64,000 bases of DNA from Vulcanimicrobiota bacterium (GTDB taxonomy: Bacteria; Vulcanimicrobiota; Vulcanimicrobiia; Vulcanimicrobiales; Vulcanimicrobiaceae): contig CAVZST010000001.1 in assembly GCA_963778015.1 (NCBI GenBank), positions 917,190 through 981,189 of the forward strand. The letters are read 5' to 3'. Shown here piece after piece: positions 6,544-60,743 of this stretch. How positions within the stretch are numbered: the stretch's first letter is position 1; every line of letters begins with the position of its first letter. Under the pieces are notes generated by a model. It was given only the letters and a program-made list of their open reading frames with translations. It made no database searches and was not told where the DNA came from. Made by a program: the position numbers and the translations under genes.

Positions 6544-7266
6544 TCAGACCTTCTCCACTTGGAAGAATTCGAATTCGACGGGTGTTTCGCGGCCAAAGAT
6601 CGAGATGAGCGCGCGTAGGCGCTCCTTCTCGGGCGCGATTTCGTCAACGACGCCGGTGAAGTCGAAGAACGGTCCCGAGGTAACCTTGACGCGGTCGCCC
6701 TTCTTGAAGTCTATCTTGAGCTTCGGCGCCTCGATACCCATTTGCTTGAGGATCGTCTTCACTTCTTTGTCTTGCAGCGGCACCGGCTTCTCGCCGGGGC
6801 CCGGACTCCCGACGAAACCGGTGACGCCCTGCGTGTTACGCACGACGTACCAAGACTGATCGTCCATGATCATCTCGACCAGGACGTATCCGGGAAAGAC
6901 CTTCTTCGGCGTGATCTTGCGCTTGCCGTCTTTAAACTCGACTTCGTCTTCCATCGGAACGAGCACGCGGAAAATCTTGTCCTGCATGCCCATCGAGTGA
7001 ATTCGGCGCTCGAGATTCGCCTTGACCTTGTTCTCGTATCCAGAGTAGGTGTGAACGACGAACCAATTCCGGTTGTCCTTTGGTTTGACCGGCGCGGCCT
7101 CGACGGCGGGCTCTTGCGCCTGCGTCTCCTGGTCGTCAGTGGCTGCCTCGTCTACGAGCGGCTCTTCGATGGCCGTGGCAAGGTCGCCCATCTGGGCGTC
7201 GTCAATGAGCGCTTCCTCGACCGACGGCTCGTCGGTGCCCCGCTCCTGGCGTTCTATGTCGTACAT
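6544..7266 (-). CDS. nusG: transcription termination/antitermination factor NusG with ~65-aa acidic N-terminal extension
   Basis: NWFVVHTYSGYENKVKANLERRI...KITPKKVFPGYVLVEM...GDRVKVTSGPFFDFTGVVDEI (NGN + KOW domains). Confidence 0.95.
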   Translation of the reverse strand: MYDIERQERGTDEPSVEEALIDDAQMGDLATAIEEPLVDEAATDDQETQAQEPAVEAAPVKPKDNRNWFVVHTYSGYENKVKANLERRIHSMGMQDKIFRVLVPMEDEVEFKDGKRKITPKKVFPGYVLVEMIMDDQSWYVVRNTQGVTGFVGSPGPGEKPVPLQDKEVKTILKQMGIEAPKLKIDFKKGDRVKVTSGPFFDFTGVVDEIAPEKERLRALISIFGRETPVEFEFFQVEKV

Positions 7267-7269
7267 GTG

Positions 7270-7503
7270 TTACTGCGTGATGCCTTGTGTTGCGGGATGG
7301 ATCACGTTGAAGACCCACCCGAAGAGTTGATCGACGAGGAACGTGAACAGACCGATTCCGACCACCAGCGCGATGGTAAGGATCGTCGCGGAGATCCACT
7401 CCTCACGCGTCGGCCACGTAACGCGCCGAAGCTCCGCGACGACGCCTCGGAGGAAATCACTTCCTGCGATCGACTGAGCCGCTTTCTTTTGTTGTTCATT
7501 CAC
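7270..7503 (-). CDS. secE: preprotein translocase subunit SecE
   Basis: GTG at 7503 (or TTG at 7506), placed after the tRNA-Trp. Contains FLRGVVAELRRVTWPTREEW plus a single TM helix. The longer ORF to 7584 runs through the tRNA. Confidence 0.8.
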   Translation of the reverse strand: MNEQQKKAAQSIAGSDFLRGVVAELRRVTWPTREEWISATILTIALVVGIGLFTFLVDQLFGWVFNVIHPATQGITQ

Positions 7504-12373: not shown

Positions 12374-13547
12374 GCATAACCCAGCCTAAGTTCGCCAGCG
12401 CCATCGATCCAATCGTCAGAAAGACCGTCTCGAAGCCGAAACGCGCAGCAATCGTTCCGCCTAGCAGCGGCCCTGCGAACATGCCCATGAACGTCGCGCT
12501 CGATGTGATCCCAAATACCTGGCCACGCCGCTCGACTGGGAAGATTCGACCGATCAGCGCGTTGGCCGTCGGGAGGACGCCGCCCAAAAACAAGCCGACG
12601 CCGAACCGTAACGCGATGAACGCACCGGCGCTATGAACGAACGCCTGTGGAATCGTGAAGGCGGCGACGCCCGCAAGCGAGATCAAGAGCACGCGACGGT
12701 ACCCGATGCGATCGCTGCGCTTGCCCAAGAACGGCGATGCGATGAGGTCGGCGAGACCGGTTACCGCAAAGGCCAAACCCGCGGCGGTCGCAAGCCATGG
12801 CACGTTGCCGGCCAGATGGCGCACGAAGAGCGCAACGACCGGCTGCACCCCGAAGGCGACGACTTGAGCGAGGAGCACCACCACGAACATCGGTGCAAGG
12901 CTCGGATGGGTCGCGACCTCGTGCAGGCCTGCGAAGAAGGAGGCGGGCCGGTTTGATCCCTTCTCGCGCCGGAAGCGCTCGTGCACGAAAATGAGGCAGA
13001 CGAACGTCGCTGCAAGTGCGAAAAACGACGTCACATAGAATACTTGGCGGTAATCGTGAAGCCGGTCGGCCAGGAATCCCCCGAAGAGCGGCCCGCAGAG
13101 GCCGCCGACGAGCTGGCCCGTAGTCATCCAACCGAGCGAATATCCAAGGCTCTCTTCGGGCACCTGCGTGCCGACCATCGCGATCGCCGCGGCCGAGAAC
13201 CCGCTAAAGATTCCCATGCAGGCGCGCGCGGCGAAGAGCTGCCAGACGTTTTGGACGATGCCCATCACCGCCGTAAAAAACGCAACGGCAAGGCACGAGC
13301 GAACCACCATCGCCTTTCGCCCAGTCCGGTCGGCAACACCGCCCCAAATCGGCGAGAAAATCGCCGCCGCCAAAAAGTTCACCGACGCGATGACGCCGGC
13401 CCAAATCGAAACCGTCGCGATCGGCTTAACGCCGAGCTGAATGATGAAGAGCGGTAAAAACGGACCGGAAACGGAGAAGGCGAAGGACATCAACGCCTGC
13501 ACCGTTACCATGAGCCAGAGCGTGCGCTGCCATGCGCTGAGCGTCAC
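12333..13547 (-). CDS. MFS transporter
   Basis: 404 aa, about 12 TM helices, GGVADRTGRK motif between TM2 and TM3. GTG start. Confidence 0.9.
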   Translation of the reverse strand: MTLSAWQRTLWLMVTVQALMSFAFSVSGPFLPLFIIQLGVKPIATVSIWAGVIASVNFLAAAIFSPIWGGVADRTGRKAMVVRSCLAVAFFTAVMGIVQNVWQLFAARACMGIFSGFSAAAIAMVGTQVPEESLGYSLGWMTTGQLVGGLCGPLFGGFLADRLHDYRQVFYVTSFFALAATFVCLIFVHERFRREKGSNRPASFFAGLHEVATHPSLAPMFVVVLLAQVVAFGVQPVVALFVRHLAGNVPWLATAAGLAFAVTGLADLIASPFLGKRSDRIGYRRVLLISLAGVAAFTIPQAFVHSAGAFIALRFGVGLFLGGVLPTANALIGRIFPVERRGQVFGITSSATFMGMFAGPLLGGTIAARFGFETVFLTIGSMALANLGWVMLSVRTPSAPEPSH

Positions 13548-13562
13548 GCGCTGGCTGTACCC

Positions 13563-14135
13563 TTATTGCGGCGGTGCGCCCTCCATGTGCATCATGCCGG
13601 GGCCGTGCCAATCCATCATGCCGAGCATCGGTCGCGGCGTCAGCGCCATCAGCAACAGCGTTCCGGCGTCGAGCTGGCGGTGCGACGGCATCGCGCCGTT
13701 CTGCGACCCATGGCTCATAAAGCCCGGGTGACCCGCCGGCATTTCGCCCTGCAGCTCGGTCCGCATCTGCTCGTGCAGCTGGCGGCTCTGGGTCGCGAAC
13801 GATGAGTGGGCCATGATGATCCGCTGCCGCTCGGCCGGTGAGAGCATCTGGTCCAGTCGCCTCGCGGTACCGGCAACGTCCGGGCTCTGCGCGATCGCAA
13901 GCTCGCCGATCGTCGCCCCGACCGCGCGCCGGTGAACCGGACTGAGAGCCGAAAGAATTTGCCAACGCATCTGCTGATGGAGTTGCTCTTCTTGCTGTAC
14001 AAAGCGCTGCAGCGTCTGATGCATCGCCTGCCGTTGGTCGGCCGTCGGGGCGGGCGGCGCGCTGGTCTCCTGTGCGAGCGCCGCCAGAGGAAATACGCTG
14101 AGCGCGAGACCCAGCGCCAAAGTCTTTCTATTCAT
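13563..14135 (-). CDS. periplasmic Spy/CpxP/ZraP-like protein with Met/His-rich C-terminus
   Basis: ATG at 14135 gives signal MNRKTLALGLALSVFPLAALAQE. Gln-rich helical body. Tail is MSHGSQNGAMPSH...MLGMMDWHGPGMMHMEG. Confidence 0.55.
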   Translation of the reverse strand: MNRKTLALGLALSVFPLAALAQETSAPPAPTADQRQAMHQTLQRFVQQEEQLHQQMRWQILSALSPVHRRAVGATIGELAIAQSPDVAGTARRLDQMLSPAERQRIIMAHSSFATQSRQLHEQMRTELQGEMPAGHPGFMSHGSQNGAMPSHRQLDAGTLLLMALTPRPMLGMMDWHGPGMMHMEGAPPQ

Positions 14136-14188
14136 AGGCCATCCTACCGCTTTCGCTTGTAAAGGTTGCTGAGAGCTCACAAAAAGGG

Positions 14189-14449
14189 CTAGGCCACCAG
14201 GTCACGCCAACTCGATGCCCTCAGCGTGACACCGTAGTATCCGGCGGCAGCTTTGATGTTGCCGAAAGCTTGTGCGCGCTCGGTTTCGGTCACGCCTCGC
14301 ACTTCGCCAAAGCGCGCGATCGCGCTGCGAACGTGTGCCGCGTCGGTCAGCGGCTCTTTGCGCTCGTTGGGGAAGGCGAAAGCGCTATCGGGCAGCTTCG
14401 CGCGAGCGGAGTCCGCATCGTCGCGCATCGGTTTCCACGTTACTTCCAT
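14189..14449 (-). CDS. DUF6582-like small protein (paralog 1)
   Basis: MEVTWKP...DSAFAFPNERKEPLTDAAHVRSAIARFGEV...AFGNIKAAAGYYGV. Clear paralog of 38970-39317. Confidence 0.7.
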   Translation of the reverse strand: MEVTWKPMRDDADSARAKLPDSAFAFPNERKEPLTDAAHVRSAIARFGEVRGVTETERAQAFGNIKAAAGYYGVTLRASSWRDLVA

Positions 14450-14494
14450 CTGTCTACCCTAGAGCGAAGCTGTGAACGGCGCGTTGACCGGCTG

Positions 14495-16090
14495 TTACAC
14501 CTTTTGCATGAGATCCGCAAGGATGGCGTGCGCGGCGCGTTTGCCGGGAAAGCCGCTGACGCAGCCTCCGGGGTGCGCTCCCGAACCGCAGAGGTAGAGG
14601 TTGCGCACCGGGGTGCGGGTCGCGAAGCGGTCTTGATAGATTTGCCCGGGAAGCAGCTCGCCGTGAAAGATGTGGCCGCCGACCAAACCGAATCGCGTTT
14701 CTAATTCGGGCGGCGCCAAGACCTCGCGGTGTTCGATCGCGGTGAGAAGATTCGGCGCGTAGGCAGCCATGATTGCAACGATTTTGTCGGCCGCCGCTTC
14801 ACGCTTCGCGCTAGTCCAACCGTCGGCGCGATCGTACGGAAAGTACTGCGCGAAGATCGAGAGGATGTGCTTTCCGGCCGGTGCGAGCGACGCATCCGTT
14901 GGCGTCTGGAGAAAACCTTCGATTAGCGGCTCGTCGCTTTCGCCGCGGCTGCGCGCATCCGTATACGCCTTCTGCAGATAATCGATCGACGGCGCAACGT
15001 GAATCGTCGCGCGGTGGTGCGGCCGAGCGTTGGTTCCGGGTCTGCATGTGAAGTTCGGCAGCTCTCCCAGGGCCAGGTTCACCTTCAGCGAGGGTCCGAC
15101 GCTCTTCCATTCCCGCACCTTCGCGGCGAAATCGGCGTCAAAAAGCGAGGGTTCGAGCAACTCGAGGAACGTCGTGCGCGGGTGTGCGTTCGATGCAACG
15201 ATTCGCGCCCGTACCGTCGCGCGACCACTGCCTTGCGGGCCAGAGTGTTCCACGCCACAAGCGCCGGCGTCTTCCACCAGGATTCTGGTCACGGCCGCGT
15301 CTGAAAAAATTTCAGCCCCATACGCGACGGCCGCCTCTGCCAAAGAGCGCGAGACCGACCCCATGCCGCCGCGCACGAAGGCCCACGAGCCTTGAGAGCC
15401 CAGCAGACGCCCGGCGAGATGATGAGCCAGAACGTACCCCGTGCCGGGGTCACGCGGACCGAGGTACGTGCCGATCAATCCATCGTTGACGAGCTCTGCC
15501 TGCAACACCGGCGTGGAGATATAGCGCTCTACTAACTCGGCCGCGGAGCCGCACAGCAAGCGCTGCGTCTGAGGATCGAGTCGCTCAAAGCGCGGCTCCT
15601 CGTCCGAAAACGTGTCGAAGAGCGTCTTGCCCAAATCGTCGGTCTGCTCGACGTAAGCGTCGAAACCGGCGACGTCGCGACGGTCGAAGGCAGCGATTTC
15701 GCGGGCATTATTCGCGCGATCGGTGCCAAGCAGCAGAGATCGACCGTCGAGCAGCGGCGTGAAGGCGTAAGGATCTTTTCGATAGTATGCGAGTCCGCGC
15801 TCGCGCAAACTCAGCTCTTCTACGAGCCAAGGATCGAGTAAGCTGCACACATACGACGCTGTCGAGAGCGTATAACCCGGCCAGAGGCCGGTTTCGCTGA
15901 CGGCAGCGCCGCCTATGGCGTTCCTCTGCTCGAAGACCGCGACCGATCGTCCGGCCTTTGCCAAGAGCGCCGCGCACGCCAGGCCATTGTGGCCGGCGCC
16001 GACGACGACGGCGTCGTACGAGCGCCTAGGGGCTGATGGGAAGCGGACGCTCAGCGATAAGACGGCCGCGAGGCAAAGCAATCCCGGCAA
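14495..16090 (-). CDS. FAD/NAD(P)-dependent oxidoreductase, phytoene-desaturase (CrtI)-like family
   Basis: YDAVVVGAGHNGLACAALLAKAGRSVAVFEQRNAIGGAA dinucleotide fold, 531 aa. TTG start at 16090 or 16081, and either overlaps the upstream gene. Confidence 0.85.
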   Translation of the reverse strand: MPGLLCLAAVLSLSVRFPSAPRRSYDAVVVGAGHNGLACAALLAKAGRSVAVFEQRNAIGGAAVSETGLWPGYTLSTASYVCSLLDPWLVEELSLRERGLAYYRKDPYAFTPLLDGRSLLLGTDRANNAREIAAFDRRDVAGFDAYVEQTDDLGKTLFDTFSDEEPRFERLDPQTQRLLCGSAAELVERYISTPVLQAELVNDGLIGTYLGPRDPGTGYVLAHHLAGRLLGSQGSWAFVRGGMGSVSRSLAEAAVAYGAEIFSDAAVTRILVEDAGACGVEHSGPQGSGRATVRARIVASNAHPRTTFLELLEPSLFDADFAAKVREWKSVGPSLKVNLALGELPNFTCRPGTNARPHHRATIHVAPSIDYLQKAYTDARSRGESDEPLIEGFLQTPTDASLAPAGKHILSIFAQYFPYDRADGWTSAKREAAADKIVAIMAAYAPNLLTAIEHREVLAPPELETRFGLVGGHIFHGELLPGQIYQDRFATRTPVRNLYLCGSGAHPGGCVSGFPGKRAAHAILADLMQKV

Positions 16091-48069: not shown

Positions 48070-49499
48070 AGCGCATACTCGACGCGATCGATCTGCTTCG
48101 CCCAAGGCAAATCGACGAACCGCCGCGCGTGACCACGATAGAACGCTTTCTGCTCTGGATCGACGATCGATTGGGAACGGCGCACTTTCTACGCCATGCC
48201 TTGCGCAAGGCCTTTCCCGATCACTGGTCGTTCATGCTCGGCGAGATCAATATGTACGTCTTCGTGGTCTTACTCGCTACCGGAACCTTTCTTGCGATGT
48301 TCTTCGACCCTAATACGTCCAAAACGGTTTACGACGGGCCGTACAAGCTGCTCGACGGCGTGCGCATGTCGTACGCTTATCGCTCGGTCATGGCGCTCAG
48401 CTTTGAGGTGAACCTCGGTCTCTTGGTTCGACAGATTCATCACTGGGCCGCGCTCCTGTTCGTCGCCGGAATCGCGACCCATATGGGACGCATCTTCTTT
48501 ACCGGCGCGTTTCGCAAGCCGCGCGAGATCAACTGGGTGATCGGTTTTCTGCTCTTTTGGCTAGCGATCTTCGAAGGCTTCTCGGGGTACTCGCTTCCCG
48601 ACGATCTGCTCAGCGGCATCGGGCTGCGGATCGCGGTTGCCGTCTTGCAATCGGTGCCGGTCGTTGGAACCTGGCTGACTTTTCTGCTCATCGGTGGCGT
48701 CTATCCCACGAAACAACTGCTGGGCCGGCTCTTCACGCTTCACATTTATCTGGTGCCGTTCGCGTTAGCCGGTTTGATCACGCTTCATCTGATCGTACTT
48801 TGGCGCCAGAAGCACTCGCAGTTCCCCGGGCCGGGCCGAACCGAGCGCAACGTCGTCGGCTCGCCGCTCGTTCCCAGATACGCCGCGAAGTCAATGGGCC
48901 TTTTCATGGCCGTCATAGCGGCGGTATGTGCGCTGGGCGCGCTCGTTCAAATCAATCCGATCTGGCTCTGGGGCCCGTACGAGCCGTGGAATGCCGTGAG
49001 CCCCGCACAACCCGATTGGTACATCGGCTGGCTCGAGGGGGCGCTTCGTCTGGGACCGCCGCTTGCCGTTCGAATCTGGGGACACATGATTCCGTCGCCG
49101 TTTTGGCCGGCGGTGCTGCTGCCGCTCCTTCTCTTCGCCGTCTTTCTCGTCTGGCCGTGGATCGATGCGGCGATTCGCAAGGACCGCGCCTCCCATCAGC
49201 TGCTCAACAATCCGCGCGACGTTCCCTGGCGCACCGGCGTCGGCGTTGCGATCTTCATCTTCGCATTCGCATTGACGGCCGCCGGCGGCGACGACGTGCA
49301 GGCGCGGTACCTGCACCTCAACATCACCACGATCGTGACCTTCTATCGCGTCTTCTGCCTGGTGGGACCAATCCTCGGGTTTTTCGTCGCCTACGCCGCG
49401 GCGAGCGAGCTGCGCGAGCGCGCCGGCGTGCGGAAGGCTCCGCGGGTGCGCCTTCGACGCAACATCGAGGGCGGATTCGAAGAGGAGTCGTTGCCCTGA
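48066..49499 (+). CDS. qcrB: cytochrome b subunit of the bc complex
   Basis: The ATG at 48066 overlaps the qcrA stop (ATGA). WSFMLGEINMYVFVVLLATG...QIHHWAALLFV...LHIYLVP. Confidence 0.93.
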   Translation: MKRILDAIDLLRPRQIDEPPRVTTIERFLLWIDDRLGTAHFLRHALRKAFPDHWSFMLGEINMYVFVVLLATGTFLAMFFDPNTSKTVYDGPYKLLDGVRMSYAYRSVMALSFEVNLGLLVRQIHHWAALLFVAGIATHMGRIFFTGAFRKPREINWVIGFLLFWLAIFEGFSGYSLPDDLLSGIGLRIAVAVLQSVPVVGTWLTFLLIGGVYPTKQLLGRLFTLHIYLVPFALAGLITLHLIVLWRQKHSQFPGPGRTERNVVGSPLVPRYAAKSMGLFMAVIAAVCALGALVQINPIWLWGPYEPWNAVSPAQPDWYIGWLEGALRLGPPLAVRIWGHMIPSPFWPAVLLPLLLFAVFLVWPWIDAAIRKDRASHQLLNNPRDVPWRTGVGVAIFIFAFALTAAGGDDVQARYLHLNITTIVTFYRVFCLVGPILGFFVAYAAASELRERAGVRKAPRVRLRRNIEGGFEEESLP

Positions 49500-50257
49500 G
49501 CATCGAGTCGAGAGCGGCGCTGTGCCTCGGGGCGGCCACGCTCTTCGGAATTGCGGCCGTCGGACCGCCGCTCGACCGCCTCGCGGATACGTCGTTCGCG
49601 TGGCACATGGTCCAGCATCTCGCGCTCTTCTTTTTGGTAACGCTTTTGCTGCTGCTCGCACGCCCGTTCGACGTGCTCGCGCGAATCGCCGGAAAACGGC
49701 CAACCGGGGCCTTTGTGCGGGCGACACGCCCGCTGCACGCGCTCGCCTTGCCGCCCGTAGCTTTGATCGTCTTCATCGCGACGCTGTGGGCAACGCACTT
49801 TTCACCGCTCTACGAGCTTGCGTTGGAACATCCGTGGGCGCACATCGCCGAGCATGCGCTCTATCTCGCCGCCGGCGTCGTTTTTTGGCTTCCCGTCGTT
49901 GGGCCGCCCCCGCTCCGGCCGCTGGGCTATCCGGGACGATTGCTCTATCTTCTTGTCGCGCTGCCGCAAGGCGCGCTTCTGGCGATGGTTATCGCAAGCG
50001 CGCGAGACCCGCTCTATCCGCACTACGCCACTGTGGCCGGCTCGCGCGCGGCCGCGCTCGCCGATCAAGCCAATGCCGCCGCGGCGATGTGGATTCTCGG
50101 AGGCTTCGCGGTTCTCGGTGCCTTGCTGCTTACGCTCGCCGCCTGGGCGCGCCGTGAGGCCGAGCAGACTCCTTCGTCAACTCCACAATGCAAAATCCCA
50201 ACGCATCCAGATCGATCGCGAAGGGCAGCGAACGGACGAGGCGCAGCGGCGTCGTAA
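49496..50257 (+). CDS. ctaG: cytochrome c oxidase assembly factor CtaG-like (caa3_CtaG family) membrane protein; start codon unresolved
   Basis: FAWHMVQHLALFFLV...HIAEHALYLAAGVVFWLPVVG. No in-frame ATG/GTG/TTG lies between ~49241 and ATG 49607. CTG at 49496 overlaps the qcrB stop. Confidence 0.65.
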   Translation: MSIESRAALCLGAATLFGIAAVGPPLDRLADTSFAWHMVQHLALFFLVTLLLLLARPFDVLARIAGKRPTGAFVRATRPLHALALPPVALIVFIATLWATHFSPLYELALEHPWAHIAEHALYLAAGVVFWLPVVGPPPLRPLGYPGRLLYLLVALPQGALLAMVIASARDPLYPHYATVAGSRAAALADQANAAAAMWILGGFAVLGALLLTLAAWARREAEQTPSSTPQCKIPTHPDRSRRAANGRGAAAS

Positions 50258-50290
50258 CGGTTCACGTCGCGGTATTTCCCCTATGAAGTG
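49877..50290. repeat. direct repeat copy A of the ctaG/glycosidase junction
   Basis: Colinear blocks match 55806-56130 (see findings). Contains intact ctaG 3' half plus decayed glycosidase 3' end. Confidence 0.85.
50130..50290 (-). pseudogene. relic of the C-terminus of a GDE-type glycosidase paralog
   Basis: Single frame reads LHRGNTAT*TVTTPLRLVRSLPFAIDLDALGFCIVELTKESARPHGAPRRRA*. The intact gene has ..IGNTATRTVTTPLRFARSL[30 aa]FAIDLDALGFCVLELVPESRPPRGAPRRRA*. Confidence 0.8.
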
Positions 50291-50306
50291 CGCTCGTACC
50301 GCCGTC

Positions 50307-52828
50307 TCACTCCAGCGCTTGCGCCTGCGCGATTGCCTCGTCTTCAGTCATCGTCGCGCCTACGCCCATCAGATGCGCGAGGTCATCGGCTCCAAACGCA
50401 TCGCGAAGCAGGGCGATCGCGCGACCGTATTCTTGTGTCAAGTCGCACAACCCCTCGATTCCCAGCGCATCGCGGCGAGCATCGACAAAGCCGAGTATCC
50501 GCGCGACACCCCGCTGCGCGCCTAGTGTGCGTCGGCCCTCCACCTGTGGCCTTAGCGCGGTCGCTAAAGCAAGATGGTGCAGGGCACCGGCTACGACCGT
50601 AGTGAGATGGTTAGCGCAGCCAATTTCAAGCGCTTCACTAGCCGGCACTCGTGCCTCATCGTACCGGCCCAACGCGACGAGGCAATCCGCCATGTTGAGG
50701 AGGGCCGTCGTCATGGTGTCAGTATCGAGCTCGGCCTTTCCATGGGTTGTAAGCACATCCCTAATCAACAGCAACGCAGTTTCGGGGGCCCCTGCGTCAA
50801 ACTCGTTGGCGGCGAGATTCAGCGTGAAGGTAGCCGCAAAGGACTGAGCGCCAAGGACATTCGCAAGCTCAAGAGCCTCGGTAAGTTGTGCGCGGGACTC
50901 GGCGAAATCACCGAGCCTTGAACGAGCAAGTCCGATTCTGCTTAAAGCGTAGGCAATGAGGGGGCGGTCGTCCAGCGTGCGAGCTGAATGCAAGGCCTCT
51001 GTCAGCAGAAGCTCTCCCTCCGACGGTCTCCCGAGACTCACGAGCGCTTCGCCTGCCAAGATTTGCGCCTGGGTGGTCCCCGTGACATCACCGAGCTGCC
51101 GATACCGTGTCAGAGCCCGCTGGGCCGCCGCCAACGACAGTTTGCGTTCACCTAGTTGTCGTAAGTATGCCGCCTCCGCGTGTTCGAGCCGCGCCACCAA
51201 CAGTGGCGGCGTGAACTCATCGACCAATTCGAGCGCCATCCCGATCCAGCGCCGCGCTTCAGCCCCCGGAAAGCTGAGCCCAATCACCTTTCGCGCAGCG
51301 GCCAAGCGTTGCCCCAGAATAACATCGCCGCGTTTTGTCAGCATCCACTGCAGTGCCGCTCGCCAATTCCCTAACTCCACGTGCGCCTGCGAGAGCCATA
51401 CCGGCTCCGGCGCCGTGCCCCAACTGGATTCGAGCCGCTCCGCCAGCTCCACGCAGAAAAGCGCGTGACGTCGCGCTGTTCGCTCCTGCTCACCGCGCGC
51501 TATTAGCTTCGCACTGGCGTACTGGCGCGACGATTCCAAGAGGTAATAGCGTTGCTCGTTACCGGCCTGCTCTGCAACCAGCAGTGACTTCGTTACGAGC
51601 GACTCGATAAGATCTATTACGTCGAGGTCGTCTTCTTCATCGGTTGCGCAAACCGCGGTCGCCGCCTCAAGCGTGCAGCCAGCCGCGAAAACGGAGAAGT
51701 GCTCGAAGAATCTTTGCTCACGCGGCGTCAGAAGATCATAGCTCCAATCAATGAGCGCGGTCATCGTCTGATGCCGCGGCAGCCCTCGAGCCTTTCCCCC
51801 GGTGAGCAGCCGAAAGCGCTGATCCAGCCGTTGGGCGATTTGATGAGGCGTAAGCACTTTCACCCGAGCGGCAGCCAACTCGATCGCGAGCGGAATCCCG
51901 TCAAGCCGACGACAAATCTCGGCAATCACCGCTGCGCTGTCGTCGGTCAATGCAAAGCTTGTATTGACCGCAAGCGCACGATCGACGAAGAGCGCGATCG
52001 CTGCATACGGCAGTATGTCTCGCGCGCTTCGGTGCGCTTCCGGTGGAACCGCAAGCGATGGGAGTCCGTAGGCCCACTCACAAGATACGTCCAATGCTTC
52101 TCGGCTAGTCGCCAGGATGCGTACATTTGGGCACGACCGCACAATACTCGCCGCAACCTCGCGAGCGGCCTCCATCACGTGCTCGCAGTTGTCCAGAATA
52201 AGCAGGAGCCGGCGGGACTTGAGGTACGCGACGACTGTGTCTAAGTCGACTCCCGTCGTTGACGGAAGTTGCAAGCGCAGCTCAAGACAGCTGTTGCCAC
52301 AAGCGTTTGGTCCGCAAGGGGCGCCAAATCGGCGAGCCACACGCCGTCTGTAAAGCGGTCGAGCCAATTGCTTCCGAGCTGCACCGCCAGGCGCGTCTTA
52401 CCAACTCCCCCAGCCCCCACCACAGTGACAAGCCGGTGTTTGCTGAGGAGCTCCGCGAGCTCTCCGGCTTCACGCTGGCGACCAACAAACGAGGTCATCT
52501 GCTGCGGAAGATTACTCCGAGGCGTTGCGTGACCGTCGGGGCGTACGAGCCGTAGCAGCGACGCATTTGCGGCACCATCGTGCTGGGGCCGACGGGACGA
52601 GTCGATCGCGCTTCTCAGGCGCGCTTCGCGCTCCGGCGTCAACTGGAGTGCGAGGGCTAGCAAGCCCACCGTGTCCCTACGAGGACGCGTTCGAGCTCCA
52701 CGTTCCAGCGTGCTGATCGACTCGACGCTGAGCTTCGATCGCTCGGCGAGGTTTTGTTGCGTCATCCCAGCGTCGAGGCGAAACTGCCTCAGCAGCGCCC
52801 CGAAGTGGGCTCGATCGGCCGCCTCCAT
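50307..52828 (-). pseudogene. frameshifted HTH(XRE)-NB-ARC-TPR (STAND) regulator
   Basis: ORF 52241-52828 holds the HTH plus Walker A GAGGVGKTRLA. ORF 50307-52367 holds Walker B RLLLILDNCEH plus TPR-like repeats. They are joined by a 1-nt shift near 52283-52286. Confidence 0.8.
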
Positions 52829-52848
52829 TTCCCCTCCGATTGGTTAGT

Positions 52849-52883
52849 CTATTGTACGGGTCATTTGTACGAGCGTACCTGGA
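52849..52883. promoter_or_regulatory. operator-like element, copy 1 (core palindrome GTACGAGCGTAC)
   Basis: ctattgtacgggtcatttgtacgagcgtacctgga, 21 nt from the STAND gene ATG, in the divergent spacer to lipoprotein gene 1. Near-identical element at 54262-54298. Confidence 0.45.
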
Positions 52884-53013
52884 GTTCATGCCTCTGAAGG
52901 CTCACAATTGCGCAAAGATCTGTGAGCACTAAAGCGCCATTCGGCGCCGCCGCGTCTAGCGCGGCCCACCCGGTAAACTAACAGCCTAACGCTATTTAGG
53001 GAAGGGTTAAACA

Positions 53014-54096
53014 ATGCGAATCCCTCAACATACCCTGTCAAAAGTCATTGTATCGGTCGCCCTGACAATGATCGCAGGCTGCACCGGCAGCGATTCGCAA
53101 CTCGCGCCGGGTCCTAGCGAGGTGATCCCTAGCGCCGCGGTGTCGTTGGTGCGGCAACAAACTGCGCAAAACCCTTCAATTAGTAACAACGTCGCGCGTG
53201 ACAGCGTGGCTAGTTCAGTGCCAGCAATAGCGCCGAGCTTTTTCGATCCGCATGCTAGGATAAGGCCGCTGATTTTTATATCCGATCGTCAGACCAAGGT
53301 GAATATCTTTTTGCAGGCGCGCAAGGATCCGAAAATCGGTCAAATCACCGGTCTCCATTCCCCGCAGGGTCTTGCAACAGACGCGAGCCGTAACCTGTAC
53401 GTCGTTGACGGCGGCACCGGGAGCGGGGCGAACGCGGATGTTCTGGTTTATACGCCGCCTTACACCGGCTCACCGAAGCTGATCCTCAACGATCCCGGCT
53501 ATGAACCCAACGGCGTGGCTGTCTCCCCCAGCGGTGTGGTTGCGGTGGCCAACTACTGCACATTCCCGAGTTGCGGTGGCCCTAGCAGTGTGGTCCTTTA
53601 CGCCAAGAACTCAACGAAGCCGTGCGCGACGGTCATAGCAGACTTAGCAGTTCTTTTCGATGCATTCGACCAGCGTGGAAATTTATACATCGATGGATTC
53701 GGCACCAGTCGCGTGGCCGCCCTGGGCGAAATCTCCGGCGAGTGCAAGGCGAAAAAGATCAAGTCCCTTACGACGAGCAACCATATCGGCGTACCGGAAG
53801 GTATCCAAGTCGACAAAGCGGGTCGGATCGCAATTCTCGATCAGGGTGATGACACTATCTACGCATATAATCCGCCGCACGATCGCGCGCTGGGCAATCC
53901 CGTTTCCACGACTCCACTCCTCGGTATCTCTGCCAATACCTTTGTATTCCTCGCGTCAGGCGTTGATCTATATGCGGGTTCCAATTGGGGCGATGCCGGC
54001 GAATATCACTACCCGGCCGGCGGCACAGCCAAGAAGATGATTACAACGAGCGGCAGCGCATGGGGGTTGGCAGTTACGCCGGCGCTCATTAAGTGA
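53014..54096 (+). CDS. lipoprotein, beta-propeller-like (NHL-like repeats), paralog 1
   Basis: Lipobox LTMIAGCTGS. Shares with paralog 2 the motifs GQITGL, (V/I)YTPPYTGSP, YAKNST.PCAT, ISG.CKAKKI..LTT, IGVP and AVTP. Confidence 0.8.
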   Translation: MRIPQHTLSKVIVSVALTMIAGCTGSDSQLAPGPSEVIPSAAVSLVRQQTAQNPSISNNVARDSVASSVPAIAPSFFDPHARIRPLIFISDRQTKVNIFLQARKDPKIGQITGLHSPQGLATDASRNLYVVDGGTGSGANADVLVYTPPYTGSPKLILNDPGYEPNGVAVSPSGVVAVANYCTFPSCGGPSSVVLYAKNSTKPCATVIADLAVLFDAFDQRGNLYIDGFGTSRVAALGEISGECKAKKIKSLTTSNHIGVPEGIQVDKAGRIAILDQGDDTIYAYNPPHDRALGNPVSTTPLLGISANTFVFLASGVDLYAGSNWGDAGEYHYPAGGTAKKMITTSGSAWGLAVTPALIK

Positions 54097-54261
54097 CATC
54101 ATTGTTACCTGCACACAGCATCCTGGCATCTAGGATTGAAGCAGCGGGGACCCGCGACAGCGACGGAAGCGATAGACCCGTTCGCCGGCGACCTCTGCAA
54201 GTCTCGAGATGCTCGCCGCCACAACGCTAGCGCAGCTGATAAGGTGCTCACATTCGCCAGC

Positions 54262-54298
54262 CTATTTGTACGGGCTCATCTGTACGGGCGTACCTGGA
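54262..54298. promoter_or_regulatory. operator-like element, copy 2 (core palindrome GTACGGGCGTAC)
   Basis: ctatttgtacgggctcatctgtacgggcgtacctgga, ~100 nt upstream of lipoprotein gene 2. Confidence 0.45.
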
Positions 54299-54396
54299 CG
54301 CCCTGCCCCAGCGGGCCCATAGTGGACGTGTCGCGAGACAGCGCTGAAAGCGCTGGAATTCGCGCACTCGGAAACCTTCGCTAAGGAGAGTTAATT

Positions 54397-55515
54397 ATGA
54401 GCATTTCTAACGCAGTGGATCGTGCGGCAATCGCATCCGTCGCACTCGCGATGCTGGCCGGTTGCTCCGGCGGTTCGCTAACGGCCGCAACGCCGGTCGG
54501 GCAAACAGCGAGCGCCGATACTAAGTCCGCCCAGGAGCAAGCCGTGCAAGGAGGCCGCAACGAGATGGGCATTTGGTTGCGGAAGGGGTCCATCGTTTCC
54601 GGCCTTCGGGTGACAACGCCGAGCTTTCTGAGTCCTGATGCCGTGGGCAAACCTCTTCTCTTCGTTGCGGACGACACGAACAACGTCGTCGACATTTACC
54701 GGCAAGCGCATAAGAAAAAGATGGTCGGTCAGATCACCGGCTTGAGCTTTCCCGCGGTCGCGACGGATACCGGTGGACGCCTGTACATCGCAAACTCTAG
54801 CGGTTCGGCCGGGGGAAATGTACTCATCTATACGCCTCCTTATACGGGATCACCGATCCTGACCTTGAGCGACGCCGGCTATTCTCCTTACGCCGTTGCC
54901 GTTTCCTCCACGGGCGTTGTTGCCGTAGTGAACCTTTGTAACGCCCCGAGCTGCGCGACTGGTAGCGGAAGCGTCAACTTCTATGCTAAGAATTCGACGA
55001 TGCCTTGTGCGACGCTCACCGATCCTTACCTCACGAATATGTTTGGCGGCACGTTCGACGGCAAAGGGCGCCTCTACATCTCGGCGCAAAGCTTCAGCGG
55101 CCCGGCAGTCATCGGTAAAATTAGCGGCGGTTGCAAAGCAAAGAAGATTACGCTCCTAACTACTAACAACCCCATTGGCGTGCCGGGCGGCGGCATCCAC
55201 GTCGACAAGCTCGACAGGATCGCCATATGGGGCACCAGCGGGTCATCTAACTCGTCGGTTATCGAAACCTTCAGGCAGCCCAAGATGGGCTCTCTTGGCA
55301 AGCCTGTCTCGATCACTCCGCTGACGAGCACCGCGAATTATTGTTCCGTCGACTTTGCGTTCCGGGCATCAGGTCGCAAGCTCTACGTCGGCGACGGTTG
55401 CGGCAAAGCTGTGGAGGAGTATGACTTCCCGCTGGGTGGTACGGCGAAAAAGACGATCACCTTCCCCAATGGAGCGCCCTACGGAGTGGCCGTTACCCCG
55501 CCCCTCGTTCCGTAA
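54397..55515 (+). CDS. lipoprotein, beta-propeller-like, paralog 2
   Basis: Lipobox LAMLAGCSGG. RBS AAGGAG. Colinear similarity to 53014-54096 along the whole length. Confidence 0.8.
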   Translation: MSISNAVDRAAIASVALAMLAGCSGGSLTAATPVGQTASADTKSAQEQAVQGGRNEMGIWLRKGSIVSGLRVTTPSFLSPDAVGKPLLFVADDTNNVVDIYRQAHKKKMVGQITGLSFPAVATDTGGRLYIANSSGSAGGNVLIYTPPYTGSPILTLSDAGYSPYAVAVSSTGVVAVVNLCNAPSCATGSGSVNFYAKNSTMPCATLTDPYLTNMFGGTFDGKGRLYISAQSFSGPAVIGKISGGCKAKKITLLTTNNPIGVPGGGIHVDKLDRIAIWGTSGSSNSSVIETFRQPKMGSLGKPVSITPLTSTANYCSVDFAFRASGRKLYVGDGCGKAVEEYDFPLGGTAKKTITFPNGAPYGVAVTPPLVP

Positions 55516-55805
55516 GTCGAATCTATGCAGCGTTCTCAACTGTGCCGGCTTGTGCAAGGAGGTCGGGCGACAAACCGTACTCGACCTCTCTTGCTGATGT
55601 GCTTTGCTGATCGATTTATGCCTCATTTCTGACGCTGAAATCCTGTTCGAAGGTTCAACAGCCAATGTAGCACAGGTCACTGAGAGAAAGTGAACTGTGG
55701 TTACGCGGCCGCCACCGGCTACCATGCGCTCATCCCCGCGTCGAGCGTTTGAAGTGCAGTCTGTAGCGCCCTTCGGTAGATCCTGCGGCCTGCTCCGACG
55801 GCACC

Positions 55806-55935
55806 GTCTTTTTTGGCTTCCCGTCGTTGGGCGCCGCCGCGAGGCGCGCTTCTGGCAATGGTTATCGCAAGCGCGCGAGGTCCGCTTTACGCTCGCCGTC
55901 TGGGCGCGCCGCGAGGCGGACGAGACTCCGGCACC
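55806..55935 (+). pseudogene. relic of the ctaG 3' region
   Basis: Reads ..FWLPVVG..ARFWQWLSQAR.. in shifted frames compared with intact ctaG. It lacks the 5' two-thirds of the gene and has internal deletions. Confidence 0.7.
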
Positions 55936-56130
55936 AGCTCGAGAACACAAAATCCCAGCGCGTCCAAATCGATCGCGAAGCCCGCTTCGAGTTTGCGAGC
56001 GTCCAAGCTCCCAGGCTCGACCCACTCGCCGAGCAGGCTCGTGAAATAGCGGACCCGGTAGCGCCCGCGCAGCGAACGAGCGAAGCGCAACGGCGTGGTA
56101 ACGGTGCGCGTCGCCGTATTTCCAATGAAA
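55806..56130. repeat. direct repeat copy B of the ctaG/glycosidase junction
   Basis: Matches 49877-50290 with ~56-bp and ~116-bp deletions in the ctaG part and 87 extra bp in the glycosidase part. Confidence 0.85.
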
Positions 56131-58346
56131 ATCACCAAACTGCCGCGTCGCTGCAACGCGATTTCGGTGACGTCGTCGCCCAACCGCAGCATCGGCGTCG
56201 CGTCGCGGTCGTACGTCTCGACATGTAAGCCGGAGACGCACGCAAAGTTCGCATAGAGCGAGGGCTCGGGCGTACGCGCGATAAACCAGGTGAGCCGCTT
56301 TCCGCGAACCACCACGTTACGGCACCCGAGCCACTTCCATTGCGGCGCGAGGCGAGGATTGCAGACGAGCTGCTTCCCGCGGATTTCCAGGCCGCATGCG
56401 CCTTCGATTGCGGACCAGACGTAGCGAGGCGGATACCAAGGCGAGAGCATCATTCCTTGGTTCGCGAGCGTCTCGCCGTGGAGCCACTCGGAAAACTGCC
56501 CCGGAACGGTATTGTTCTGGCCGGGGTCGCGCGAATAATGCGCAAAGCTCGTCCCCAGCGCGTAGGCCATAAAGCCGGGATTGAAGCGCGCCGCTGCCAT
56601 TGCATAAAGGAACGTGCCGCCGACCCAAACGCCGCCGAGCAGGCCCCAGCTTTGGATGGGGCTGTATTCGAGATCGTCGCGCGCGACGGTGCGGATGCCG
56701 GCCTCAGTCCAAAACGATGGGACGCTGAGGCGGCTGACGATGCGCGCAGCCGTCTCATGTTCGGCAACGCCGAGAACAACGGGAAAAAGCATGTCGACGG
56801 TAACCTTCGAGCGGGGCCGGCCGTCGACGTCGATGTTGAGGTAGTAAAGCCCGGTGTTGGGATCGATCAGGTGTCGGTTGATTGCCGCACGCAATCCGGT
56901 TGCCTCGCGTTCGAACCGGTGCTTATCGTTCTTGTTTCCGAGCGCCGCGGCCATCAGCGCCATCGCGGTGAAGGCAGCGTAGCATTCAGAGTTCACTTCC
57001 GTCGATGCGCCCGAGATTCGATAGTCGTCGATGATGTTTCGCCAGCCGACGATGCCCCACATCGAAGTCTTCGTCGACGTGCACCAAATCAAGCCGCGCG
57101 CGTCGCGCTGATCGAGCAGATATTCGGCCGCGCGTTTGGCTGCCGCATACGACTCACGAAGGAATTCAAAATCGCCGGTTACGAGGTAATGATGACTCAA
57201 CGCAAGGATGACCAGCGGGGTGTCGTCGTTCACATTCAAGCCGTAATCGTTCGCGTCGCCGTTGCGAACGTCGTAATACTCGACGATTTTGCCGTTTCGC
57301 TGAGCATTGCGAAGGTACCATCGTAACGATTCGCGCGAAAAATCCGGCGTGACATAATCGGACCCGAACGCGAACGAAGCAGTGTCGCGGCCGACGCTGT
57401 TGTTCGAGCGCGTCGGGTCGTTGACGAAACACCAGCCCGTCGGCGCGTAGAGCTCCGTGCGCAACATGTTCGCCTTTGCCCAAAGCACGCCGCGGTTGAC
57501 GTTCGCGTCGGGGGTGACGACGATCGCGCGCCCGAGCACTTCGTCGTAGTGGCGGCGGGTTTGGACGAGCGCGACCTGTGCGGAGGGGGCGGTCCGGTAG
57601 CAGCGGCGCGCGCCGCGCGCTCCTTGCGCAGAGCCGACCAGCGTGAACCAAAAACGGTGACGTGTCGCAGGCAAAAGACGGTACCGGTGATGGAAGAACG
57701 CGATCGGCTCGGCGACCCCGCGGGACACGGAGTTTGAGAGCCTGCCCGCAAAGTGCGGCCGAGTCATCTTGCCGTGGTCGCCGGTTACTTCGAAACTCGT
57801 CGGCGCGCGGGAGGACCCGATCGCGCGTCCCGCATGGGGCTGGGACGCATTCCACGCGACAAAGGCTCGAAGCGTCCGGTCGTAGCTTGCGCGCACGTCA
57901 CGCAGGGTGTTGCCGCGCAGAAGCGCGCCGGTGAAGCTGTCGAACTCGTGGGTTTCGTGCGAATCGTTGCGTACCTCGACGATGAGGTAAGCCGTCAGCG
58001 GATCGACGCGATTGCCTTGCGGCTTGGCGTTGAGGACGAAGAGGCTTTCGACGACGCTCACGCCTTCGTCGATGCGGTACTCGTACTCCTGAAAATCCGG
58101 ATGGATCCGGAACTTACCGTCGACCTTCGCGCGCGCCGCACCGGATGGCGCATCCCAAAACTGAATCGAAACGCCTGCAAGGAGGTTCAGGCCTAGGTCG
58201 CTAGAGTAAAATTTCTCGATCGCGCCCGAGGCTTTGATGAGGATCGCGCCCTTCGGGCCGCCGAGCGTGCTGCCGACGGCGAGCTGCGTGTCCTCGACCT
58301 CGTAGACAGCGATTCGTTCGCCGGAACCAAAGATTCGAGCGCTCAC
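55887..58346 (-). CDS. amylo-alpha-1,6-glucosidase / glycogen-debranching (GDE_C, six-hairpin) family glycosidase
   Basis: 819 aa, GTG start. (alpha/alpha)6-type region DTPLVILALSHHYLVTGDFEFL...SGASTEVNSECYAAF...GIRTVARDD...VPGQFSEWLHGE. Family assigned from memory. Confidence 0.8.
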   Translation of the reverse strand: MSARIFGSGERIAVYEVEDTQLAVGSTLGGPKGAILIKASGAIEKFYSSDLGLNLLAGVSIQFWDAPSGAARAKVDGKFRIHPDFQEYEYRIDEGVSVVESLFVLNAKPQGNRVDPLTAYLIVEVRNDSHETHEFDSFTGALLRGNTLRDVRASYDRTLRAFVAWNASQPHAGRAIGSSRAPTSFEVTGDHGKMTRPHFAGRLSNSVSRGVAEPIAFFHHRYRLLPATRHRFWFTLVGSAQGARGARRCYRTAPSAQVALVQTRRHYDEVLGRAIVVTPDANVNRGVLWAKANMLRTELYAPTGWCFVNDPTRSNNSVGRDTASFAFGSDYVTPDFSRESLRWYLRNAQRNGKIVEYYDVRNGDANDYGLNVNDDTPLVILALSHHYLVTGDFEFLRESYAAAKRAAEYLLDQRDARGLIWCTSTKTSMWGIVGWRNIIDDYRISGASTEVNSECYAAFTAMALMAAALGNKNDKHRFEREATGLRAAINRHLIDPNTGLYYLNIDVDGRPRSKVTVDMLFPVVLGVAEHETAARIVSRLSVPSFWTEAGIRTVARDDLEYSPIQSWGLLGGVWVGGTFLYAMAAARFNPGFMAYALGTSFAHYSRDPGQNNTVPGQFSEWLHGETLANQGMMLSPWYPPRYVWSAIEGACGLEIRGKQLVCNPRLAPQWKWLGCRNVVVRGKRLTWFIARTPEPSLYANFACVSGLHVETYDRDATPMLRLGDDVTEIALQRRGSLVIFIGNTATRTVTTPLRFARSLRGRYRVRYFTSLLGEWVEPGSLDARKLEAGFAIDLDALGFCVLELVPESRPPRGAPRRRA

Positions 58347-60545: not shown

Positions 60546-60619
60546 CGCGGTCGGAGGGACTCGAACCCCCAGCCAACAGGTTCGAAGCCTGCTGCTCTAT
60601 CCAATTGAGCTACGACCGC
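60546..60619 (-). tRNA. tRNA-Arg (anticodon TCG)
   Basis: Minus strand: GCGGTCG TA GCTC AATTGGATA GAGC A GCAGG CTTCGAA CCTGT TGGCT GGGGG TTCGAGT CCCTC CGACCGC G. Confidence 0.93.
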
Positions 60620-60654: not shown

Positions 60655-60743
60655 CGCTCGCTGCTCAGGATGACACCGGAGTAGCGCCGCTCGCTGCTCA
60701 GGATGACACCGAGTAACACGGCTCGCCGCTCAGGACGACACGG
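60655..60743. repeat. three tandem 31-33-nt units with core GCTCAGGATGACACCG; the third unit contains the cfa stop codon
   Basis: Units at 60655-60678, 60688-60711 and 60719-60743 (diverged: gctcaggacgacacgg). Same orientation as the rpoC-proximal set. Confidence 0.85.

Follow-up and report, generated by a model that had tools for sequence, protein, structure and literature searches.

Gene content of the locus

The window, i.e. the whole 64-kb stretch of DNA analysed here, originates from an uncultured soil bacterium of the Eremiobacterota and lies on a 1.83-Mb contig of an uncultured MAG. The features concerned are the following (window coordinates):

49496..50257, plus strand: ctaG, cytochrome c oxidase assembly factor, intact (Pfam Caa3_CtaG, PF09678)
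49876..50288: copy A of the junction, corresponding to positions ~577-923 and 1012-1073 of the ancestral profile (BLASTN; MAFFT versus single-copy junctions; nhmmer)
50130..50288, minus strand: glycosidase 3' relic in copy A, interrupted by an in-frame stop and shortened by a net 87 bp at 50223/50225 (translation; tblastn)
50288..50299, minus strand: palindrome GTACGAGCGCAC of the cassette type at the left joint of the insert (motif search)
50307..52828, minus strand: regulator with an N-terminal XRE-type HTH (HTH_31), a STAND/AAA NTPase and a C-terminal TPR (Pfam)
52867..52878: palindrome GTACGAGCGTAC, putative operator (conserved region upstream of lipoprotein gene 1)
53014..54096, plus strand: lipoprotein 1, NHL-repeat beta-propeller type, with a lipobox-like N-terminus (Pfam NHL)
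54282..54293: palindrome GTACGGGCGTAC (upstream of lipoprotein gene 2)
54397..55515, plus strand: lipoprotein 2, paralog of lipoprotein 1 (sequence comparison)
55516..55804: 289-bp spacer from lipoprotein 2 to copy B, right joint at 55804/55805
55805..56131: copy B of the duplicated junction (BLASTN; MAFFT versus single-copy junctions; nhmmer)
55805..55886, plus strand: remnant of the ctaG 3' end in copy B (deletions of 56 bp and 116 bp, frame broken), which ends at the glycosidase stop codon
55887..58346, minus strand: glycoside hydrolase (GH), MGH1-like, six-hairpin, intact, 819 aa (Pfam PF22422)

The gene identities proposed from the sequence alone—ctaG, glycosidase, STAND regulator and lipoprotein—agree with the Pfam assignments. 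The ctaG product matches PF09678 with an E-value of 1.8e-45 and 155.6 bits (gathering cut-off 27.7) over profile positions 23-236 of 237, corresponding to 49520-50152, and is 78-84% identical to CtaG of the relatives. Its tail outside the domain, from ~50153, runs through the glycosidase relic, and its start is uncertain, the window having CTGA versus GTGA or TTGA overlapping the qcrB stop in the relatives. Concerning the glycosidase, for which a hydrolase role is predicted from the domain (PF22422; E-value 2e-20, 74.1 bits, gathering cut-off 27), its final ~14 codons lie on the strand opposite to what was once the 3' end of ctaG.

Two copies of one gene junction

A BLASTN comparison of 49300-50700 against 55300-56700 revealed four blocks, all colinear and in plus/plus orientation: 49876-49913 versus 55805-55840 (92% identity, E 2e-10), 49958-50013 versus 55831-55886 (91%, E 1e-17), 50130-50223 versus 55887-55980 (82%, E 1e-18) and 50225-50279 versus 56069-56123 (85%, E 5e-12), the remaining matches of this comparison all having E ≥ 0.05. 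The same block pairs were recovered by a repeat search of the window. Independently of BLASTN, a nucleotide profile built with nhmmer from the single-copy junctions of three relatives only matches the window twice over the same profile interval, copy A covering positions 2-923 and 1012-1073, and copy B positions 651-717 (E 8e-9) and 829-1801, with its first block at ~577. The colinear homology of the two copies, already claimed in the sequence-only reading, is thus confirmed by four significant blocks of 82-92% identity as well as by the profile; their extents had to be adjusted slightly, copy A ending at ~50288 instead of 50290 and the intervening block covering 50289-55804. The junction is present as a direct duplication of ~497 bp around an insert of 5,516 bp. 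Perfect matches of the two repeats now reach 24 bp at most, and this longest run is internal to them.

The junction in relatives

In the close relatives L001, L026 and L098, the ctaG/glycosidase junction is single, convergent and overlapping by 158 bp, with no genes between, i.e. an empty site; the comparison with related genomes, suggested together with the sequence-only reading, thus finds the two genes directly convergent where the block is absent. The glycosidase of L001 and L098 has 819 aa and 87-88% identity to its ortholog from the window. In about 30 other relatives, the end of the ctaG homology and the start of the glycosidase homology coincide at profile position ~860-880, free of repeats. 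Junction duplications are absent also from those relatives in which ctaG and the glycosidase are separated by other genes (L010, L013, L020, L021, L024, L035 and L063), and among the loci compared the duplication is unique to the window.

In the immediate ancestor, the junction was fused: ctaG (plus strand) and the glycosidase (minus strand) had both lost their stop regions, each gene reading into the other over ~158 bp. 3' gene overlaps can originate by stop-codon loss, and the ancestral overlap looks like a loss of the stop region in both genes. In the Cybelea/Baltobacteraceae group, the boundary of ctaG and the glycosidase is prone to rearrangement: its states among the relatives comprise the fused junction, a glycosidase deletion (L096), an IS-associated truncation and several different islets, the glycosidase being truncated in L097.

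Complementary decay of the copies

The glycosidase relic of copy A is 42% identical to GH residues 735-813 (tblastn). Its translation, GNTAT*TVTTPLRLVRSLPFAIDLDALGFCIVELTKESARPHGAPRRRA*, is exactly the one given from the sequence alone, and the 29 codons described there as missing correspond to the net 87-bp deletion at 50223/50225; the deletions of ~56 bp and ~116 bp reported for copy B were likewise recovered, the ctaG relic changing frame twice. None of the three deletions affects conserved coding sequence of the gene that the copy retains: two lie downstream of the stop codon of GH, and the remaining one is in the ctaG tail beyond the domain, where it has replaced the ctaG stop codon.

The substitutions show the same distribution. 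In the glycosidase part, seven copy-specific changes are found in the relic versus one in the functional twin, and in the ctaG part, four in the relic versus none in functional ctaG, so that 11 changes fall on the redundant halves and one on the functional halves (binomial p = 0.006, from a small set of 12 informative sites). The copies have degenerated in a complementary manner, ctaG being kept in A and broken in B, and the glycosidase being kept in B and broken in A. The earlier statement that each copy lost its redundant half holds as far as this 11:1 decay is concerned, but the outer truncations are end points of the duplication, not later losses; the later decay consists of the three internal deletions and substitutions.

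With regard to the origin of the copies, the ctaG relic has an identity of 0.93 to copy A versus 0.79-0.87 to the outgroups, and the GH relic of 0.82 to copy B versus at most 0.79, while four derived sites are common to copies A and B. Both copies thus appear, on few sites, to be endogenous, i.e. from the recipient lineage, since no outgroup is as similar to a relic as the functional twin from the same genome and since the derived sites are shared. The empty sites and the 11:1 bias together support the core of the sequence-only reading, namely that an overlapping convergent junction was duplicated around an insert and its redundant halves decayed.

Content and borders of the insert

The three genes of the insert occupy 4,724 of its 5,516 bp, the longest unassigned stretch being 300 bp. 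Lipoproteins 1 and 2 share 45% identity. The reading frame of the regulator is broken by a -1 frameshift at 52280-52310 (tblastn); its counterpart from L085 is one ORF of 832 aa. The left joint is abrupt: the GH homology ends at 50287/8, and the palindrome GTACGAGCGCAC begins right there, 7 bp before the stop codon of the regulator. This motif has only three sites in the 64-kb window, all of them within the block, and is found again between the regulator and lipoprotein genes of L081 and L085. The 289-bp spacer on the right side has no blastn or tblastx match in any relative locus compared and no junction homology by nhmmer, and no further junction relics were found by these programs anywhere in the block.

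A Pfam search of all three genes detected no integrase, transposase or recombinase, in agreement with the sequence-only reading. At the block ends there are neither terminal inverted repeats, tRNA genes nor Rfam families, and the borders at 50288 and 55804/5 have no sequence in common that could represent an att core. An insertion of a transposon or IS was rejected on account of the missing transposase domain and terminal inverted repeats and of a duplication of ~497 bp versus the 2-14 bp expected. A comparison of composition with the flanks, also proposed earlier, does not mark the block as clearly foreign, its GC3 of 0.63-0.69 being within the range of the window (0.69 ± 0.08); as evidence of foreign origin, composition is uninformative.

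A regulator divergent from lipoprotein gene(s), together with the same palindrome, was identified in L081, L085, L086 and L087, in non-syntenic positions with no ctaG or GH nearby. The insert is accordingly a discrete conserved cassette, consisting of a regulator divergent from NHL-type lipoprotein genes and of a palindromic, operator-like motif. In these four genomes, both an adjoining integrase and gene-end duplications are absent: no flanking repeats were seen around the cassette in L086 and L087, and those in L085 represent a multi-copy dispersed non-coding element absent from the window. An exact-sequence look-up of lipoprotein 2 gave no match, and its best non-self homologs among 5.8 billion proteins are 62-70% identical, the contexts of the best matches (L081-L084) having at most the regulator-lipoprotein pair in common with the window. 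A metagenome scan with the regulator yielded four cassette-bearing contigs of unrelated contexts.

The donor locus, or a sister genome with the same insertion, was found neither by the protein look-up nor by the 5.8-billion-protein search or the metagenome scan, the insertion event itself being thus a reconstruction. A donor would be expected to exhibit the regulator 3' flank GTACGAGCG(C/T)AC, followed by a lipoprotein gene, plus the spacer 55516-55804.

Origin of the arrangement

The cassette of 5.5 kb now lies between two ~497-bp copies spanning the overlap, the left one completing ctaG and the right one the glycosidase. This structure probably arose in one step by a duplicative insertion (a "Dup-In" of natural origin, with the topology of a Campbell insertion), and the copies then decayed in a complementary manner; both the direct colinear flanking repeats and the empty site in relatives that such an event implies are present. 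The cassette would have come from elsewhere in this genome or from that of a related member of the Eremiobacterota, and two illegitimate (non-homologous) joints would have connected it: joint b within the glycosidase 3' end and joint a within that of ctaG, ~497 bp upstream of b. The joints would have been made on two copies of the region, i.e. sister chromosomes bridged by the fragment, and, because a lies to the left of b, the interval a..b would appear on both sides of the cassette. Alternatively, a circular intermediate carrying a..b may have entered by a single crossover; linear bridging and the circular Campbell intermediate give an identical product and are hence indistinguishable. An imperfect similarity of the regulator 3' end to the glycosidase beyond b, noticed by eye at ~15 of 21 positions, was considered too weak for a microhomology.

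Within the overlap, this would be the sole insertion geometry keeping both genes whole, an argument weakened by the glycosidase being dispensable in some relatives, as seen from its deletion in L096 and truncation in L097. Later deletions and divergence would then have shortened the longest perfect repeat match to the present 24 bp; with such a match, loss of the cassette by repeat recombination is expected to be rare, so that removal of the homology needed for excision would have fixed the insertion. From the two mechanisms offered in the sequence-only reading, the Campbell-type topology fits, but a segmental duplication followed by gene replacement is not supported, the window containing no second copy of the regulator or lipoprotein genes. 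A large segmental duplication was rejected for the same reason (tblastn), with the best homolog of lipoprotein 2 reaching just the 62-70% given above.

Spontaneous tandem duplications are frequent in bacteria, and a ~497-bp tandem duplication may have uncoupled the two genes first, the cassette entering the neutral spacer later. This order of events, rather unlikely on the whole, leads to an identical final structure and suits a locus that is rearrangement-prone in the clade. It needs, however, three illegitimate joints versus two, and the insertion has to hit or erase the original b|a joint; nhmmer detected neither a GH fragment on the copy B side nor a ctaG fragment on the copy A side. Moreover, a bare duplication occurs in no relative examined, and a bare 497-bp tandem repeat should, judging from the size dependence of repeat recombination, be quickly lost (PMC5389514).

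Two successive steps are also conceivable, an insertion of the cassette at b truncating the glycosidase, with its 3' end and a piece of ctaG restored afterwards from close kin by homology-facilitated illegitimate recombination. The losses in L096 and L097 indicate that a truncated intermediate would be viable, but two rare events are required, no intermediate has been seen, and the donor must have been nearly identical to the recipient, the relic of copy B being closest to copy A and having derived sites in common with it; we consider this course of events improbable.

Even less credence is given to the remnant of a site-specific integrative element comparable to those known from icd (e14, phage 21), which would since have lost its integrase and the greater part of its sequence. 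Elements of this type bring along replacement 3' ends for the genes that they target. The outline is the same as that of e14 flanked by icd and an icdC fragment (PMC13626634), but the insert has neither an integrase nor the space for one, its borders have no common core, and the 24-bp identical run is internal to the repeats. In addition, the left joint directly adjoins an operator-like motif located 7 bp from the stop codon of the regulator, the two repeats seem to be endogenous and not to have been brought in by an element, and the cassette occurs in four other genomes without an adjoining integrase or gene-end duplications.

Finally, an assembly artefact, i.e. a chimeric join or a duplicated repeat, is highly improbable despite the source being an uncultured MAG, several related MAGs also containing frameshifted genes and the regulator frameshift being possibly a sequencing error, since the copies have diverged by 8-18% and carry three distinct deletions found in no relative, their changes are biased onto the redundant halves—a pattern that an assembler mis-joining would not make—and the contig is 1.83 Mb long.

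Significance and comparison with known systems

The case presented here is a known kind of rearrangement with an ordinary mechanism, a clean natural example and no new molecular system. The one-step duplicative insertion would illustrate how two genes overlapping tail to tail can both survive the entry of a foreign or translocated cassette, and how direct repeats may decay complementarily, locking the insertion by loss of excision homology; the example is of use in teaching and in the annotation of pseudogene fragments in MAGs of the Cybelea/Baltobacteraceae group. A bolder view, to which very little probability is assigned, is that the cassette is a recombinase-less mobile module of the Eremiobacterota that recurrently copies hundreds of target bases to both sides, duplicative insertion being perhaps common and overlooked. 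The cassette context differing in each of five genomes and the left end with its operator-like site exactly at the joint point in this direction; a second case of the cassette with flanking gene-end duplications was not found (none in L086 and L087, and only the dispersed non-coding repeat in L085). If true, duplicative insertion would be a general bacterial route for untangling overlapping genes and gaining small islets.

A Campbell-type single crossover of a circle carrying an internal target fragment produces a direct duplication of that fragment around the insert. The window resembles it in having one copy complete on the left and the other on the right; it differs in that its insert has no replicon, plasmid or phage functions and no known circular form, and the circle itself would need two illegitimate joints. 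In duplication-degeneration-complementation (subfunctionalisation), a bifunctional unit is duplicated and one function is kept per copy, whereas in the window the principle applies to the strands of one short interval, not to subfunctions of one gene.

In E. coli, e14 is flanked by icd, the 3' end of which extends into the element, and by the displaced icdC 3' fragment pseudogene (PMC13626634). As with e14 and phage 21, a functional gene in the window lies on one side of the insert and a displaced 3' fragment of the same gene on the other. Whereas e14 employs an integrase together with a defined att core and brings along a diverged icd 3' end of its own, the window has no integrase, no core and apparently endogenous copies, with two overlapping genes served together. 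Concerning merodiploid formation in natural transformation, interchromatid integration via homologous IS861 repeats generates duplications of 100-900 kb (PMC3784515); a single fragment pairs there with two sister chromatids to give a tandem duplication with the fragment at the joint, a similarity to the route proposed for the window, although the duplication here is 0.5 kb and its joints are repeat-free. The Dup-Ins, engineered by lambda Red recombineering in Salmonella and E. coli, are presumed to arise when two sister chromosomes are bridged; recombination removes them if their repeats exceed ~300 bp, the loss being undetectable at 100-210 bp (PMC5389514). They share with the window a cassette at the join point of a short tandem duplication, each side having one complete gene end; they rely, however, on designed 40-nt homologies and lambda Red, whereas the joints in the window look illegitimate, the insertion is an old one of natural origin, and its repeats have decayed to a point where loss is improbable.

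The duplicated junction

The 3'-3' junction of ctaG and a glycosidase gene (GH) occurs twice in the window, as copy A and copy B, on the two sides of an inserted block. BLASTN of the two intervals gave four colinear blocks on the same strand (E-values 2e-10 to 1e-18), all remaining matches having E ≥ 0.05, and the same pairs were recovered by a separate repeat search:

49876-49913 and 55805-55840, 92% identity
49958-50013 and 55831-55886, 91% identity
50130-50223 and 55887-55980, 82% identity
50225-50279 and 56069-56123, 85% identity

The copies were mapped by aligning both to the single junctions of relatives and by running against the window a nucleotide profile derived from relatives alone. 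Copy A covers profile positions 2-923 and 1012-1073 and copy B about 577-604, 651-717 and 829-1801, the doubled ancestral interval being about 497 bp (positions ~577-1073). Relative to the ancestral junction, copy A carries a net 87-bp deletion and copy B deletions of 56 and 116 bp; 5,516 bp (50289-55804) separate them. The finding is real: the colinear homology claimed by the sequence-only reading is borne out by the BLASTN blocks, its translation of the GH relic and its deletion sizes are exact, and its structural interpretation, a junction duplicated around an insert with complementary decay, is right. The genes of the locus are as follows:

ORF ending at 50257, + strand, ctaG, Caa3_CtaG assembly factor (Pfam, E 2e-45)
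50307-52828, - strand, XRE-HTH/STAND NTPase/TPR regulator (Pfam)
53014-54096, + strand, NHL-type lipoprotein 1 (Pfam)
54397-55515, + strand, NHL-type lipoprotein 2, paralog of lipoprotein 1 (45% identical)
55887-58346, - strand, GH, 819-aa MGH1-like six-hairpin glycoside hydrolase (Pfam)

Upstream of this locus lie ctaD, ctaC, ctaE, qcrA and qcrB, and downstream tsaD. Relatives start ctaG with GTG or TTG, which overlaps the stop of qcrB (as GTGA or TTGA), a position occupied in the window by CTGA (49496-49499); the window gene begins either with this CTG, which is non-canonical, or with the ATG at 49607, the latter giving the 216-aa product on record (P0121). Further downstream, three tandem copies of the 24-nt unit CGCTCGCTGCTCAGGATGACACCG, spaced 32-33 nt apart (60655-60743), lie close to a tRNA gene (60546-60619, - strand).

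The ancestral overlap in relatives

A GH-based scan with one genome per species returned 80 loci, nearly all from Eremiobacterota (Candidatus Cybelea, Baltobacteraceae). In the two closest by GH, L001 (87%) and L026 (86%), the gene order is tsaD, GH, ctaG, qcrB, with GH and ctaG convergent, overlapping by 158 bp and without intervening DNA; L098, found via CtaG, is arranged alike. In these relatives the two genes are directly convergent and the block is absent, which is the comparison that the sequence-only reading had proposed. None of the ~30 loci of other relatives examined has a duplicated junction; in these, ctaG homology ends where GH homology starts, at profile position ~860-880.

In most relatives GH stops about 15 codons earlier (at ...IELQRxxx), ctaG stops a few codons past WARRE, and a gap of 1.5-4.9 kb with varied genes lies between them; in L008 the overlap is just 11 bp. 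A cytochrome c/PQQ-type dehydrogenase occupies the gap in L010, L013, L020 and L021 (about 12400-14600), and other genes do so in L024, L035 and L063. Some of the CtaG proteins at such loci span 350 aa and are fused to a cytochrome c domain (PF13442 + PF09678); P0172, P0173 and P0227 were noted with the dehydrogenase and fusion loci. The clade of the window, L001, L026, L096, L097 and L098 has lost both stop regions, and each gene reads into the antisense strand of the other; the ancestral overlap appears to be itself a derived state.

Two relatives with a fused junction have lost GH, which is therefore dispensable. In L096 (1634-2457) only the last ~52 codons persist beneath the ctaG tail, tsaD being directly next, and in L097 (8650-9463) residues ~551-815 are kept with frameshifts, followed by ORFs without assignment and IS (rve) transposases. 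The site is unstable and prone to rearrangement in this clade.

The inserted cassette

The divergent pair of regulator and lipoprotein genes recurs on four contigs (L081, L085, L086, L087; regulator 52-77% and lipoprotein 46-62% identical to the window), whose flanks are unrelated to one another and to the window. The regulator is a single 832-aa ORF in L085; in the window a -1 frameshift (52280-52310, - strand) splits it into two, which could reflect real decay or a sequencing or assembly indel error. A non-coding repeat of 120-210 nt, with copies 80-89% identical, flanks the L085 cassette on both sides (7069-7277, 7375-7420, 12654-12777, 12867-13080, 13159-13209); it gave no tRNA or Rfam match, was not found in the window and may represent a dispersed intergenic repeat family.

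Each window lipoprotein gene is preceded by a conserved segment of ~50 nt with the palindrome GTACG(A/G)GCGTAC, the sites of GTACGnGCGTAC being:

window 50288-50299
window 52867-52878
window 54282-54293
L081 682-693, regulator-lipoprotein intergenic region
L085 9422-9433, regulator-lipoprotein intergenic region

The three window sites are the only ones in 64 kb (one mismatch allowed), all in the block; over all fetched loci the background amounts to one site in roughly every 58 kb. The palindrome probably serves the XRE-type regulator as its operator. The third site, GTACGAGCGCAC (50288-50299), lies 7 bp ahead of the regulator stop codon and starts exactly where GH homology ends, and therefore the left joint is cassette DNA abutting junction DNA, with 1-2 shared bases at most. 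On the right, 289 bp without assignment precede copy B.

Since the three genes fill 4,724 of the 5,516 bp, no room is left for a recombinase gene; consistent with the earlier statement, Pfam found no transposase or integrase domain in the insert, and its borders carry no terminal inverted repeat, tRNA or Rfam family. The composition of the block is not distinctive (GC3 0.63-0.69; window mean 0.69 +/- 0.08).

Polarity and origin of the decay

Copy-specific changes were counted only where five outgroups agree. The ctaG-only blocks have four changes unique to copy B (relic) and none to copy A (functional), whereas the GH-only block has seven unique to copy A (relic) and one to copy B (functional), i.e. 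11 against 1 overall (binomial p = 0.006); in the stretch formerly coding on both strands they split 6 to 3. Both copy B deletions fall 3' of the GH stop codon, and that of copy A, within the non-domain tail of ctaG, removed the ancestral ctaG stop, in place of which a new stop at 50255-50257 is used. The identity of the ctaG relic is 0.93 to copy A versus 0.79-0.87 to outgroups, and that of the GH relic 0.82 to copy B versus ≤0.79 to outgroups. This closeness to the same-genome twins, together with four derived states common to both copies, indicates that both arose within this lineage rather than in a distant donor.

Mechanism and comparison with known systems

In structure, a cassette occupies the point where the units of a short tandem duplication join, and one duplicative insertion via two illegitimate joints would be the most economical origin, because there are two abrupt joints and no recombinase. 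A duplication that came first, with the cassette inserted later, is improbable, as three joints would be required and the bare duplication is not seen. Still less credence goes to a GH that was truncated and later repaired with kin DNA, and slightly less again to a decayed e14-like integrative element: the outline matches icd/icdC (PMC13626634), but there is neither an integrase nor an att core, and the repeats are endogenous. An assembly artefact is very improbable, since distinct deletions and biased substitutions between the copies are beyond any assembler and the contig spans 1.83 Mb.

The locus represents a duplication-insertion into a fused junction of convergent genes; the event is natural, old and by now fixed, and complementary degeneration came after it. 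No other geometry of insertion within an overlap keeps both genes complete. The fragment may have entered by linear bridging or through a circular intermediate, the product being identical: a circle bearing the interval from the ctaG 3' end to the GH 3' end would, by Campbell insertion, give the same topology, so that the Campbell-type scheme proposed earlier fits, in common with linear bridging. Engineered Dup-Ins, thought to arise by a fragment bridging two sister chromosomes, segregated readily with repeats of at least 300 bp but not above background with repeats of 100-210 bp (PMC5389514). At this locus the three deletions and 8-18% divergence leave no perfect match between the repeats longer than 24 bp, which would stabilise the insert. 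The rearrangement is of a known kind and the locus adds a further example, instructive if unsurprising to specialists; its topology equals that of the engineered Dup-Ins (PMC5389514).
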